NCBI GenBank assembly: GCA_965112155.1
Contig: OZ218105.1
DNA: 64,000 nucleotides
Reading direction: 5' to 3' (one strand)
DNA from: Podarcis liolepis
Taxonomy: Eukaryota
The notes beneath the pieces were generated by a model. It was not told where the DNA came from. It searched no databases and saw nothing but the letters and a program-made list of their open reading frames with translations. Made by a program: the position numbers and the translations under genes. This document shows positions 11,054-54,249 of the stretch, piece by piece (the stretch's first letter is position 1; every line of letters begins with the position of its first letter).

Positions 11054-11295
11054 CAGTGGTACCTCGGGTTACATACGCTTCAGGTTACATACGCTTCAGG
11101 TTACAGACTCTGCTAACCCAGAAATAGTGCTTCAGGTTAAGAACTTTGCTTCAGGATGAGAACAGAAATCGTGCTCCGGCGGCGTGGCAGCAGCAGGAGG
11201 CCCCATTAGCTAAAGTGGTGCTTCAGGTTAAGAACAGTTTCAGGTTAAGTACGGACCTCCGGAATGAATTAAGTACTTAACCCGAGGTACCACTG
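11054..11295. mobile_element. Tc1/mariner (Tigger-like) MITE, 242 bp
   Basis: TIR cagtggtacctcgggtta / taacccgaggtaccactg, TA TSDs, internal (cttcaggtta) repeats. Confidence 0.9.
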
Positions 11296-15598: not shown

Positions 15599-15856
15599 CC
15601 GTATTTTTCGCTCTATAAGATGCACCAGACCACAAGACGCACCTAGTTTTTGGAGGAGGAAAACAAGAAAAAAAATATTCTGAATCTCAGAAGCCAGAAC
15701 AGCAAGAGGGATCGCTGCGCAGTGAAAGTAGCAATCCCTCTTGCTGTTCTGGCTTCTGTTATAGCTGCGCAGGCTGCATTCGCTCCATAAGACGCACACA
15801 CATTCCCCTTACTTTTTAGGAGGGAAAAAGTGAGTCTTATAGAGCAAAAAATACAG
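15599..15856. mobile_element. Tc2-like (CCGTATTTTT-TIR) MITE, 258 bp
   Basis: TIR ccgtatttttcgctctataaga / tcttatagagcaaaaaatacag, TA TSDs, central hairpin cagaagccagaacagcaagaggga...tccctcttgctgttctggcttctg. Confidence 0.85.
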
Positions 15857-22739: not shown

Positions 22740-22981
22740 CAGTGGTACCTTGGGTTACAAACGCTTTGGGTTACAAATGCTTCAGGTTACAGAGTCCACT
22801 AACCTGGAAGTAGTACCTCGGGTTAAGAACTTTACTTCAGGATGCGAACAGAAATCGTGTGGCAGCGGCGTGGCAGCAGCGGGAGGCCCCATTAGCTAAA
22901 GTGGTACCTCAGGTTAAGAACAGTTTCAGGTTAAAAACAGACCTCCAGAACGAAATAAGTTCTTAACCAGAGGTACCACTG
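22740..22981. mobile_element. Tc1/mariner (Tigger-like) MITE, same family as 11054-11295
   Basis: TIR cagtggtacct / aggtaccactg, TA TSDs, colinear with the 11054 copy. Confidence 0.9.
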
Positions 22982-48518: not shown

Positions 48519-51256
48519 CTGAAAGTGAAAGCAAAGAAGTCAAAGGTAAGATTAGGCCACTTTTTCATCTTCCACAGCACACCCAGCACTCTGTTGTAGA
48601 GACAATCTAACAGAGGTTTAACCAAGTCAAGGATGGTCATCCATCACTGCGGAAAGCTGCAGCGTTTGTTGGCCAATGAAGAAACACCTTCTTTGGATAA
48701 CATGCACTCAAATATTTGAGTGGAATGCTACAGCAATTTTATATTGGACGTCTGTGACAATGAATGCTAGAAACTAAGCCATGACTTAGCATGGAAAAGA
48801 AAATTTGTTGAAGAACTAGAAAGAAGAAAGTTAAATTCACGGTTTCTTTATTTCTACAATCCATGGGCTAACTCATCCCCCTGCCCCTCTGGTAAGTAGA
48901 GAAGGATAAAAGGAAGTGGAAACCACTCAATGGGCTTGAACTGGCCACAACATTATTGAAAGAACATGAAAAATGGGCATGTGGGGTGGGAATTAAGCTA
49001 TTATGAGGAAAATTAGGCATAAGAAGGTTCCTGAGCTGAGCTACTTGTACCCGTCTGCTCCTTGTACACTGCTCCTTGTATCCCACCTTTATCCTGAATC
49101 ATAGCCCATTCACAAGCTGCTCCATTCTTGTGACCATTCTGCTTTTTCCCATTGCAGTCAACATTAACTTTTTGCTCTCCCAACACAGGTGACATTTTCC
49201 AGTTCTACACTGGTCCTTGTGCCATCTGGAGTGATCAACCTACCTTGGATCCTTTCCTCTTTACACAGGTAAGCATAAGGTCTTAATATTTCTTACCACA
49301 TTCCCATGATAAAGCTTGCAGCCTCCTTCCACTAACTAAGCAAATCCCATTTTCCCTAAAGAGGTGGGACCTTCCTTTTGCAATGCTGAGTTTCCTGATA
49401 ACCATGCCGAGCCACAGTCTTGCTCACAGCTGTTATCCTTCCTTCTGGTTCTGTCTGTCCCAGCGGGGATCAAAGCCCCTGACCAAACCCTCCTGGGCAG
49501 CATTTGCAGCCATGTTACTTCAACCCTCGGGAAGAATTGCCTAATGGTGCCCATTCCATTTGTGACCTTGATGGTCAAAAAGCTTGTAGAGGACATTCTG
49601 AATAAGGAGGATTACTAGAACCTGGGGATGCTGCTTATCTCTTCCCATAGAGATGGAAAGCCACATTCAGTGGATGGCATCTAAGTCATACACAGAGTTG
49701 GAACCACTTCAATGGAACTGACTAACCTAAGCTTATTGATTTAAATCAGTTTAAGTTTAATATGACTTAGTTGGATACAAACCAGTGTTTTGAGATTTCT
49801 ACCATCCTAGTGCAAAATGTTCTAACTGTTAAGCCATGTTTTATGACACGGTAGGCTACTATTTTCAGAATAAAAATATCCTGCTGCATGTACACTACAG
49901 CCACTAACTACAATTTAGCATGTACCAGGTCCATGATGATTTCCTGCAAATTAAGTTAACTTCATGTTACAAGTTAGGAAAATTAAAGTGGTTAGACGCT
50001 TTTTATGAAGTTCCCTGTTGAGTTATGTAAGAACGAGCGAGTTCATCCATTTTCTTGGATAGGCAAGCACTAGGATTGAAACAAAAGAGAAAGGGAGGTT
50101 TCTTCCCGCTCTGAGCAGAGCCAATAGAATCTAGAATATTGCTGTACCTACATTTCCCAATCTGCCTTGACGTCTAAAAAGGGGGAAAGGCATTATCTTT
50201 TCTTAAAGGGGCAGAATTATTCCTTCTACATAATACTAATACACAAATTTGCTATCACTAAATAACTGACCCCTATGGGGGCAGAACAATGCTAATACTT
50301 AGGCTTACAACATACTTTGGTTGTTAATCTAGTATAGTCTGGTACCTTTTCACAAATTATGACACTGAATATTATTACTACAACAACTATCAGCAATGTA
50401 TGATTTGGATTGCATCTGACTGAAGTCATATTGAATACTGGAAGCATTAAAATCAATGGATAGTACTATTATCCCCACATAGCACTGGAGACACAGACAC
50501 CAGCCTACGTAAAGGCCATCTAACCATGGCTGGTCAAGAATTGAGCCAGAAACTCACACATGACACTGTCAGTCATTGCAGCACACTGGATTTCAGCATT
50601 AATAGCTACTAGAATCCTTTAGGAAATTGTGATCATGTCACAATTCTATTACTTTCCCCATATTTTCCAACATTGGCAAGAGATCACTGTGGGATGAGGT
50701 GAGGATATCATCAATATGCTGATGACATAAAACAGGTCAAGGTGAACCATTTTTCAAAACTTGCTTTTGACTATGACTGTTATTGATAATGGTATTGTAT
50801 ATTTTATGGGGTGGGGTTGTAAACCCCTTAGAGCAGGGGTAGTCAACCTTTTTATACCTACCACCCACTAATGCATCTTTCTTGATGGTAAAATTTCCTT
50901 ATGGCCCACCAGTGCAGTGAAGCATAGTGTCCCCAAAACAAATACAATTTTAAAAGGCTGATTTTGAGCTTTCAAAAACAGCATTATAGAAAGCTATCTT
51001 TTTTCAAAAAAATCTTTACAATGAAAGGGCGAGGAATACAAACTAAGCAATGAAGCATGATGCTGCTGTATTTCTATAATGCACTTGGTAATTCGTAATT
51101 AAGGCTGCATTGTAAACAATGCCAAAATTTGGCTAGCTTTCTTGCTTTTCACCATAAATAGTACACTAATGAGTGTGACATTCTCAAGGAGCATTTCACA
51201 TTTCTTCCTGATTTTTACTAATGTGTGCTTTTAATATACAGTGGTACCTCAGGTTA

Positions 51257-52010
51257 CCGTATTTTTCGCCCTATAGGACGCACTTCCCCCCCTCCAAAAA
51301 TGAAGGGGAAATGTGTGTGCGTCCTATGGGGCGAATGCAGGCTTTCGCTGAAGCCTGGAGAGCGAGAGGGGTTGGTGCGCACCGACCCCTCTCCCTCTCC
51401 AGGCTTCAGGAAGCTATCCGCAAGCCGTGGGAGCCCGCAGGAGTTCCCCCGGGCTCCCACGGCTTGGGCAGAGCTGCCTGCACCCCGAAGCCCCGGCTCG
51501 CTGAGCAGTCGCACCGGGGCTTCGGGTAGCTCTGCGCAAGCCGCGGGAGGGCTCCCCCGGCTTGCGCAGAGCTGCCTCTTATCCCGACGCCCCGGCGCGC
51601 TAAGCAGTCACGCCGGGGGTTTGGGTACCTCTGCGCAAGCCGCGGAAGGGCTCCCCCAGCTTGTGCAGAGCTGCCTCTTATCCTGAAGCTACCCGAAGCA
51701 ACTGCTGAGCGCGCCGGGGCTTCAGGATAAGAGGCAGCACTGTGCAAGCCGGGGGAGCCCTCCCGTGGCTTGCGCAGCGCTGCCTCTTATCCCGATGCCC
51801 CGGCGCGCTGAGCAGTCATGCCAGGGCTTCGGGTAGCTCTGCGCAAGCCGCAGGAGGGCTCCCACGGCTTGCAGAGAGCAGCCTGTTCTGGGGGCTGGGG
51901 CAGCCTCGCACCTTGGGGGGGAAATATATATTTTTTTCCTTTATTCCCCCCCCCAAAAAAACCTAGGTGCGCCTTATGGGCCGGTGCGCCCTATGGGGCA
52001 AAAAATACGG
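51257..52010 (+). mobile_element. Tc2-like MITE (guest 1, 754 bp) with GC-rich internal hairpin minisatellite
   Basis: TIR ccgtatttttcgccctatagg / cctatggggcaaaaaatacgg; TA TSD at 51255-51256 and 52011-52012. Confidence 0.9.
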
Positions 52011-52166
52011 TACATACGCTTCAGGTTACAGACTCCACTAACCCAGAAATAGTGCTTCAGGTTAAGAACTTTGCTTCAGGATGGGCACAGAAATCGTGCT
52101 CCAGTGGCATTAGCTAAAGTGGTGGTTCAGGTTAAGAACGGACCTCCGGAACAAATTAAGTACTTA

Positions 52167-52683
52167 CCGTATTTTTCGCCCTATGGGACGCACTGGCCCA
52201 TAGGACGCACCTCGGTTTTTTGTGGGGGGGAATGAATGAAAAAAAATATCCCCCCCCCAGCCGCGGGCTTCCCCTGACCCCAGCCCCCAGAACAGGCTGC
52301 TATCCGCAAGCCTCGCGGACACGGCGCCCCGCGCTCCGGGAAGCAAGCTGCTATCCGCAGCCTAAAGAGCCCTGCGGGAACTTCCGCAGGGCTGCCTAGG
52401 CTGCGGATGTCTTCCCAAGCACTGGGTGCTCTGCTTTCAGCGTGCCCCGTGCTCCAGGAAGCAGGCTGCTATCCACACTAGAGAGCCCTGCGGGAACTCC
52501 CGTGGGCGCCCCAGGCTTGCTGATAGCTTCCTGAAGCCTGGAGAGCGAGAGGGGTCGGTGCGTACTGACCCCTCTCGCTCTCCAAGCTTCAACAAAAGCC
52601 TGCATTCGCCCCATAGGACGCACCCAGATTTCCCCTTCATTTTTGGAGGGAGAAAAGTGCGTCCTATAGGGCGAAAAATACGG
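52167..52683 (-). mobile_element. Tc2-like MITE (guest 2, 517 bp), opposite orientation to guest 1
   Basis: TIR ccgtatttttcgccctatggg / cctatagggcgaaaaatacgg; TA TSD at 52165-52166 and 52684-52685. Confidence 0.9.
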
Positions 52684-54249
52684 TAACCCGAGGTACCACT
52701 GTATTGGATTGTAGCACTAAGTTAAAGTCACTTAATGGTACAATTGATCTGCTGGGGCAGTGGCAGGAGAAGCTGTGCCCATTCCACCTTTAGCTTATTT
52801 AAGAGGGTGGCCAGGTGCAGGCTGCCCTATTTGCTGACCATCACAGGACTTTTCACCCACCCCAGATGTTAGTGGTCTGCCCAGGGGGGAAGCAGACATG
52901 TGGCATACGGTCTTTGCTATGCTTTGCTTGGTCATCATGTTCGGGGGCAGGGAGGAATTATCTTCTGCAAGCAATTTGGCATGTTTCCACCTACCTCACA
53001 GTAACTGTTACAACTTTGGGGGATAAGGCATTGGGCTGGAGCATACACTGCTAAAGGGGTCTGGGAGGGGTGACTCTGTCCAGGAATCCACACAGGGACT
53101 GTTGGGCCAATACACTCTCCAAATGGCAGCCTGTGCAGGGTTGTGGCACAGTACAGTGTCAAACCCACTAGGTTCCTGTCAGATAGTAGGTGTGTTGCAT
53201 GATGCTGGATACATGCCCAATGCCTAAGCCAAACCTACCCTTTCCTGTAATAAAGTTGTGGCCTAATTCAACCCAATACCAGTCTCCTGCGCTCATTCTT
53301 TCAGCCTTCCCTGTACCAGCTGAGGACATCATGTGCCTATGGCGGCAATCCTCTATTGTGCAGCAGTAAATCTCACATTTCCAAAAACCTGCATGAGAAC
53401 CAAACACATGGAATTTAATCTGGAATAAACTCCTCTCTGAATTCTTTTATGAAATGTATCACAACAAAACAAGTTTATTATTGTCTGGCAATTCCCAATG
53501 AGCCAAGATTTTTTCCTTAGAACTGTACCTGAGCAAGACTTCCTCTATCACTGAAGATTATAAAACTAGATTTAGTGTTATTTTATGTTCAGTTTGTAAC
53601 TAAAGTTTTATGTCCAAGCGGGCAAACATGACTGACTGGTCAAATGTGCAGGCGGCTGCTTTAATAGCATGGGCTTCTCACTTGTCAGGATCTATATATA
53701 TTTCCCCCCTGTCAGAACTTACCTCACAATGGAGAAAGATTGCTAGACATACCCAGGTTAATGTTAAAGCTACTGGCCAATAAAATATTCTGTCAGTGAC
53801 TGCACATCAACCCGCATTTGAATTCTCTGTTCTTGATTAAACATATAGGTATAAGTGCAGGTGAACGGGAATTTGCTTTTTTATGAAGTAAAGTCTGACA
53901 GAAAATGTAAAATGCTCTGGCATGCTGCTCTATGCAATCTTGAGACACATACTCAAACACTTTTACAGAGAACAGGCTTTCACAGCAGTACTTATGCAGG
54001 AACAAGATACCACATGTAGTAATTTATCCTCTACTCACATGCTAAAAAAGGAGGAGGCACTAAAAAAGAACATATGGTCACTGTCCCTTGCCCCATTTTC
54101 TTCCCTGTAGATAAGCTGTCCTGGCATCAGATGTCTCTCACTTTGAGGGTTTGCAAGTTATAACAGAAGCATAAAACAGGAAGCTGCTTCTTCATAACAT
54201 GCAAACGTCTAGGACTCAGACCAGTGCCAAACAATTCAAAGGGTTGGTG

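Follow-up and report, generated by a model that had tools for sequence, protein, structure and literature searches.

Two MITEs nested at equivalent sites of one host element in Podarcis liolepis probably reflect independent insertions

A 64,000-nucleotide stretch of the Podarcis liolepis genome (GenBank assembly GCA_965112155.1, contig OZ218105.1; hereafter the window) contains a miniature inverted-repeat transposable element (MITE), the host, into which two further MITEs, guest 1 and guest 2, have inserted at the equivalent TA dinucleotide of its two ends. We consider that this mirror-symmetric double nest most probably (at a probability of about 0.72) arose through two ordinary, independent transpositions by MITEs of different subfamilies and that the mirror position is coincidental. 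The locus is real and unusual-looking, and it is composed of ordinary parts.

Two guests occupy equivalent TAs of one host

The host spans positions 51239–52701 of the window and is bounded by TA dinucleotides at 51237–38 and 52702–03. Each guest lies 16 bp plus a TA inside one host end (an insertion site that we refer to as offset 16) and is flanked by its own TA duplication, at 51255–56 and 52011–12 for guest 1 and at 52165–66 and 52684–85 for guest 2. The guests are mutually inverted, with the 5′ end outward in both. The coordinates, TA target-site duplications, 16-bp offsets and same-end-outward geometry that an initial annotation had reported from the sequence all hold on re-checking.

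Removal of both guests from the host leaves a 188-bp TA-flanked element. In gapped alignments, this emptied host is 78% and 71% alike to two unnested copies in the window (11054–11295 and 22740–22981). The host has 18-bp terminal inverted repeats that differ between the two ends by an A/G at position 13. Because the target TA was duplicated upon insertion, the full 18-bp repeat is intact at both ends; the guests part the terminal repeats from the host interior and leave the repeats themselves uncut. The outer arms of the structure form a 218-nt inverted repeat that is 90% complementary.

Guests 1 and 2 have terminal inverted repeats of about 28 bp and are identical over their first 28 bp. Their interiors contain different minisatellites, with a unit of 99 bp repeated 4.3 times in guest 1 and a unit of about 116–118 bp in guest 2 (Table 1). 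An unnested guest-type element, belonging to a 259-bp family, is present elsewhere in the window (15599–15856).

Table 1. Features of the double nest, with positions in the window
Feature	Position	Strand	Remark
Host left TA target-site duplication	51237..51238	+	coordinates checked
Host left 18-bp terminal inverted repeat	51239..51256	+	its final two bases form the TA that guest 1 duplicated
Guest 1, 754-bp non-autonomous element, subfamily A	51257..52010	+	5′ end outward; likely the later insertion
99-bp GC-rich minisatellite (×4.3) within guest 1	51451..51884	+	
Guest 1 second TA copy	52011..52012	+	
Host interior	52013..52166	+	closes with the TA that guest 2 duplicated; based on alignment to unnested hosts
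Host subterminal palindrome	52156..52166	not assigned	TAs at offset 24 (52157–58) and offset 20 (52161–62), empty here
Guest 2, 517-bp non-autonomous element, subfamily B	52167..52683	-	5′ end outward; likely inserted first
Host right 18-bp terminal inverted repeat	52684..52701	-	first bases are the second TA copy of guest 2
Host right TA target-site duplication	52702..52703	+	

The guests belong to separate subfamilies

Sequence kinship places the two guests apart. Searches with the guest interiors, in each of which 40 candidates were scored, recovered relatives up to 95% alike for guest 1 and up to 88–89% alike for guest 2, and the best full-length relatives are 94% and about 90% alike, respectively. 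In a tree of terminal segments from 75 elements, guest 1 is placed within the subfamily that its interior had recovered, and guest 2 is placed outside that group. The shared ends of the guests are 85.8% alike, with 7 differences among the last 45 bases, and guest 2 ranks 32nd of 74 among the neighbours of guest 1. No private variants are common to both guests: the four non-majority alignment columns that they share each recur in 7–27 other copies. The proposal of the initial annotation that the guests represent two independent insertions is thus supported by their separate subfamilies and different interiors, and also by the contigs of related organisms described below.

More broadly, members of the guest family (loci L007–L036 and L124–L162 of our collection) keep about 150 bp of the 5′ end and 60–110 bp of the 3′ end around highly varied, GC-rich minisatellite interiors, and their total length ranges from 255 to 1,517 bp.

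We also considered a composite family that moves as a unit and ruled it out. The four other loci with a guest at offset 16 carry single, different guests, and a pattern for doubly nested hosts, with one guest at offsets 16–24 of the right end and another upstream, matched this locus only, though the pattern is built of exact motifs and decayed cases escape it.

Contigs of related organisms suggest that guest 2 inserted first

We compared both outer junctions with contigs from eight public runs representing six organisms (coded A, B, C, D, H and I, where H comprises two runs of one sample), leaving out joints that derive from other host copies. The assembly itself may derive from one of these runs, X15. 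The left-flank contig enters guest 1 in both organism-A runs only, by 9 and 12 letters (to 51265 and 51268). In H (both runs), C and D it parts from the window at 51257 by one or two unlike letters, and in I and B it ends at 51257. On the other side, the right-flank contig enters guest 2 by 10 letters in one H run (to 52674) and by 23 letters in D (to 52661), and the contigs of the other six runs end at or before the junction. Right-side contigs of runs X1, X15, X18 and X3 break short of the junction, and X19 and X2 end exactly at the junction on both sides. In both organism-A runs the right-side break is at 52685.

These contigs suggest a guest-2-only state in the relatives H and D, and guest 2 is likely to have inserted first and guest 1 later. 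A comparison of related organisms' loci, which the initial annotation had put forward as a check, thus points to a singly occupied state for guest 2, albeit from short overlaps.

The apparent guest-2-only alleles bear on the possibility that a single insertion into an extruded host hairpin generated two inverted copies at the equivalent TAs, one of which later had its interior replaced by ectopic conversion. Such an event would be expected to yield the same offset, inverted orientation and same outward end that we see. It would also create both copies at once, which argues against it given that organisms H and D appear to have guest 2 without guest 1. The guests moreover differ throughout, including in their last 45 bases, and fall in separate subfamilies, and we regard this scenario as very improbable.

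No contig among those listed spans the whole structure, though short contigs reach each outer junction. This would be compatible with two singly occupied haplotypes that were joined by recombination in the 154-bp host interior or merged in assembly, as would the break of both organism-A runs at 52685, which leaves guest 2 not shown in them. However, that break precedes the point at which the alleles would differ and is uninformative rather than negative, and every one of the TA duplications is exact, as is the host interior. The joining of haplotypes would still need both insertions at one locus and thus makes the coincidence no smaller, and we consider it quite unlikely.

The occupied TA is not a preferred target

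The initial annotation had also interpreted the double nest as the work of a parasite, proposing that the guest family targets the host terminal repeat at the offset-16 TA with fixed polarity and thereby disables the host. Both ends are indeed hit here in the same polarity, and guests do accumulate near one host end, but genome-wide counts run against the proposal. The host-end 18-mer class has 80,207 exact copies in the 1.574-Gb genome. The guest-type end pattern has 30,488 matches (1,313 for the control), which become about 37,000 guest-type ends after correction for the pattern's first letter, and exact 29-mer guest ends number 2,204. Among the 80,207 host ends, six have a guest/host junction at offset 16, and two of these six are at the locus described here. 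Uniform use of TA sites would predict 15.7 such junctions (ratio 0.38), a value that is an upper bound because it takes no account of guests that predate the host and had no chance to enter it; comparisons between host sites are independent of this age issue. At other host TA sites, a set of 24 matches comprises 13 guests at the flanking TA, 2 at offset 6 and 9 at internal look-alike sites.

Polarity is likewise mixed. The four other offset-16 guests present the 3′ end outward in three cases (L001, L002 and L006) and the 5′ end in one (L005), and of 47 guests at offsets 19–24, 21 are in one orientation, 25 in the opposite orientation and 1 is unclear. A target-specific parasite should show strong enrichment with fixed orientation at one host position, and most of its copies should lie in the host. 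Neither is observed: guest ends within 240 bp of a host end number 569, many of them counted from both sides, of about 37,000. Disabling of the host finds no support either, as the 18-bp terminal repeats are whole at both ends of this host and, by extrapolation, about 0.3% of host ends have a guest at offsets 16–24. With no enrichment at the TA and no consistent orientation, the targeting model is refuted by the test that the initial annotation itself proposed, and the guest pile-up described next, which lies at other offsets and is made up of guests from several families, 152–1,411 bp in length, leaves it hardly credible.

A nearby hotspot follows the guests' general target preference

Guests do pile up in the host near an end, but the accumulation lies 4 and 8 bp further inward than the occupied TA and at the host right end only. 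The first 100 of 569 nested matches listed, all from contigs C1 and C2, include 17 guests at offset 20 and 29 at offset 24, whereas offset 16 has none. By extrapolation, offset 20 would hold about 97 events (about 5 expected) and offset 24 about 165 (about 7 expected), a 20–25-fold excess for which the expectation used assumed site numbers; in a sample of 27 host ends, the offset-20 site is present in 9 and the offset-24 site in 12. We fetched all 46 offset-20/24 cases together with one at offset 19 and found that host sequence continues past the guest in 40 of the 41 nested cases that could be resolved among these 47. The possibility that the hotspot consists of amplified composites was ruled out, in that guests at offsets 19–24 differ in family, length and orientation. 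At the hotspot loci (L052–L081 and L085–L118), several Tc2-like MITE families occupy the host's right subterminal palindrome in both orientations.

The guests' target consensus is A-N-N-TA-N-N-T. In 322 distinct guest flanks from loci not chosen for nesting, A occurs at position -3 in 245 (background 32%) and GGT in none. A target profile built from 321 flanks scores 23 at offset 20 and 8.7 at offset 24, and the two occupied sites score 2.0 and 1.0. This ranking of host sites is close to their observed use, so the guests' general target preference accounts for the hotspot. Offsets 20 and 24 are thus nested-element hotspots set by target sequence, and the two occupied sites are not. The same profile bears on three internal CAGGTTA sites, the emptiness of which the initial annotation had set against the hits at the host ends. 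These sites are indeed empty, but their scores of just 0.07–0.14 make this uninformative about targeting.

Based on these results, we propose that two cut-and-paste insertions, with guest 2 likely the first, would have entered a very abundant host MITE. A Tc2/pogo-type transposase presumably moved both guests, and the second insertion would not have been steered by the first. The host's terminal inverted repeat presents the same TA at both ends, each occupied TA having a good half-site on its inner side and a poor one on its outer side, so that either host end can be used at a low rate.

Weighing the mirror symmetry

A number of observations weigh against this proposal of ordered, independent insertions at a coincidental mirror position. 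Under independence, an offset-16 double is expected about 2 × 10⁻⁴ times per genome (40,100 hosts × (6/80,207)²), so that a large look-elsewhere factor, covering many family pairs and many windows, is required for coincidence to hold. A poor site is taken while the best ones of this host, which lie 4 and 8 bp away from guest 2, are empty. The contig overlaps that underlie the order of insertion, at 9–23 letters, are under a 31-letter bridging standard, the left-side departures consist of one or two unlike letters, and the right side is uninformative in four of the eight runs and ambiguous in two more. Finally, the collected loci include a second mirror pair, L083, in which guests of two families (169 and 265 bp) sit at equivalent TAs. 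At least two mirror pairs would be expected with P = 4 × 10⁻⁴ to 4 × 10⁻³, and at least one among the 60 resolved close pairs other than the present locus with P = 0.03–0.085.

These probabilities derive from 79 facing guest-end pairs within 300 bp, of which 76 are distinct and 61 have both outer flanks resolved; the two mirror pairs are among these 61. The expected number is 0.008–0.05 unweighted and 0.03–0.09 target-weighted, on 390 kb of sampled genome. A first null was dominated by (TA)n repeats, and the one used here was redone without low-complexity flanks. The null is noisy, the mirror cut-off was set after both cases were known and the locus itself was chosen for its oddness. Fifteen pairs were dropped for an unresolved outer flank, among them L084, where a 2-bp spacer within a TA run is symmetric. 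We therefore take the excess of mirror pairs as a weak hint and not as a result.

The L083 pair (L083:1789–2432; G000:C7, about 44.786 Mb) lies in an old inverted repeat, the arms of which measure about 200 bp and of which no other copy was present among the loci collected. Its left insertion site is the sole full match to the target consensus among the 13 TAs listed and its right site is one of four half matches, so target preference helps to explain this pair. Doubly hit hosts also occur without symmetry. Two guests of 518 and 786 bp occupy host offsets 20 and 24 in L086, and in L217 one guest lies just outside the left host end and another at offset 24. It is thus not double occupancy as such that is strange but the exact double at offset 16. 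Mutual local attraction among guests was considered and set aside, with 79 close pairs versus a rough estimate of 50 indicating only mild clustering.

The best rival to independent insertion is a second event guided by symmetry. If the 18-bp host ends paired by folding back once guest 2 was present, the end of guest 2 would lie directly opposite the left TA, and placement could then proceed through bound transposase or through repair that starts on the end of guest 2 and switches to another family member. The very low chance expectation for the double and the excess of mirror pairs that L083 brings over the null would both fit such a process. So would a predicted fold that pairs the outer arms up to and past both insertion TAs, computed without a shuffle control at that length, and the identity of the first 28 bp of the guests. 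That identity, however, reflects the family consensus, which has 2,204 exact copies. The A/G difference at position 13 of the host ends is kept, which argues that no conversion tract covered this position, and the guests have no private variants in common. The guests in L083 are of different families, with ends that diverge from about base 11, and the mirror-pair null shares the post hoc cut-off and the 390-kb basis noted above. Guided placement finds no positive support in sequence, and we judge it unlikely. The more general idea, that a transposon in one arm of an inverted repeat may steer a later insertion to the mirror site through fold-back and that mirror double nests would be a recurrent, undescribed phenomenon, likewise seems doubtful to us.

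If we return to independent transposition as the preferred explanation, the locus represents a tidy example of nested MITEs. Its study yielded as by-products the guest target consensus and a roughly 20-fold hotspot in the host right subterminal palindrome, which could help in the relative dating of two bursts and provide presence/absence markers. Were mirror pairs to prove enriched, they would implicate DNA structure in steering either the choice of target or repair between inverted repeats, and would bear on the origin of long genomic palindromes.

Other arrangements among the collected loci

Three further arrangements were encountered. L049–L051 (G000:C3, about 48.015 Mb) contain a 273-bp tandem unit, present in several repeats, that includes a guest-type element of 169 bp. 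In L268 (G000:C1:683300–690600), two host ends 6.8 kb apart enclose what resembles a long terminal repeat element nested in a host MITE, with long open frames, including one that runs to 1,351 codons, and a stretch that is duplicated close to either end. L180 and L181 (G000:C6, 22.61 and 22.79 Mb) show an identical nested arrangement 179 kb apart, likely a segmental duplication.

Relation to known elements and nesting systems

The host and both guests have the characteristics of Tc1/mariner-type MITEs, namely TA duplication, short terminal repeats, small size and high copy number. No transposase gene was found at the locus, where the longest stop-free frames (117–154 codons) lie in GC-rich repeat and fall short of transposase size, and no Pfam scan was made. 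Nor was an autonomous partner recognised by eye among frames of at least 220 codons in nine extra regions and the collected loci, no genome-wide search having been run. Guest ends start with CCGTA/CYGTAT and host ends with CAGT. A wider end motif is associated with Tc2/Kanga elements. Since neither host nor guests encode a transposase, the names "Tc2-like" for the guests and "Tigger-like" for the host remain end-motif labels only.

We found no literature on mirror double nesting or on these families, within a coverage that excluded subscription journals and Repbase/Dfam and that does not show absence from print. The closest parallel to the hotspot comes from passages of a study of nested transposable elements in the human genome, in which insertions cluster at single positions (the DNA transposon MER1 into MIR3, for example, at positions 154 and 160 in both orientations) and target motifs were derived from nested-insertion data (Levy et al., PMC2836564). 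Host offsets 20 and 24 are similarly used in both orientations. Unlike the present case, those data concern other families in the human genome, and the passages make no mention of guests at mirror positions in the two terminal repeats of one element.

A second comparison is with the non-autonomous Tc1/mariner elements that PMC3014272 presents for the lizard Anolis. The ends of TcMar-N4, N6 and N13 start with CYGTAT, and those of TcMar-N9, N11 and N16 start with CAGTG; N4 is linked to a Tc2-related element and N11 to Tigger3. The elements described here share with these families TA duplication, short terminal repeats, thousands of copies and the lack of a recognised autonomous partner. The guest ends agree with N4, N6 and N13 over the first six bases, and the host end agrees with N11 over the first five (PMC3014272 Table 2). 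No Anolis terminal repeat listed there matches guest or host past these first bases, which indicates different families, and copy numbers here (80,207 host ends and about 37,000 guest-type ends) are far above those given for the Anolis families.

For the pogo family, sections of PMC7325037 report TC2-like elements in gecko and snake, describe Tigger as polyphyletic and define classes by transposase phylogeny. A TA target is common to the pogo TC2 and Tigger clades and to the elements nested at this locus.

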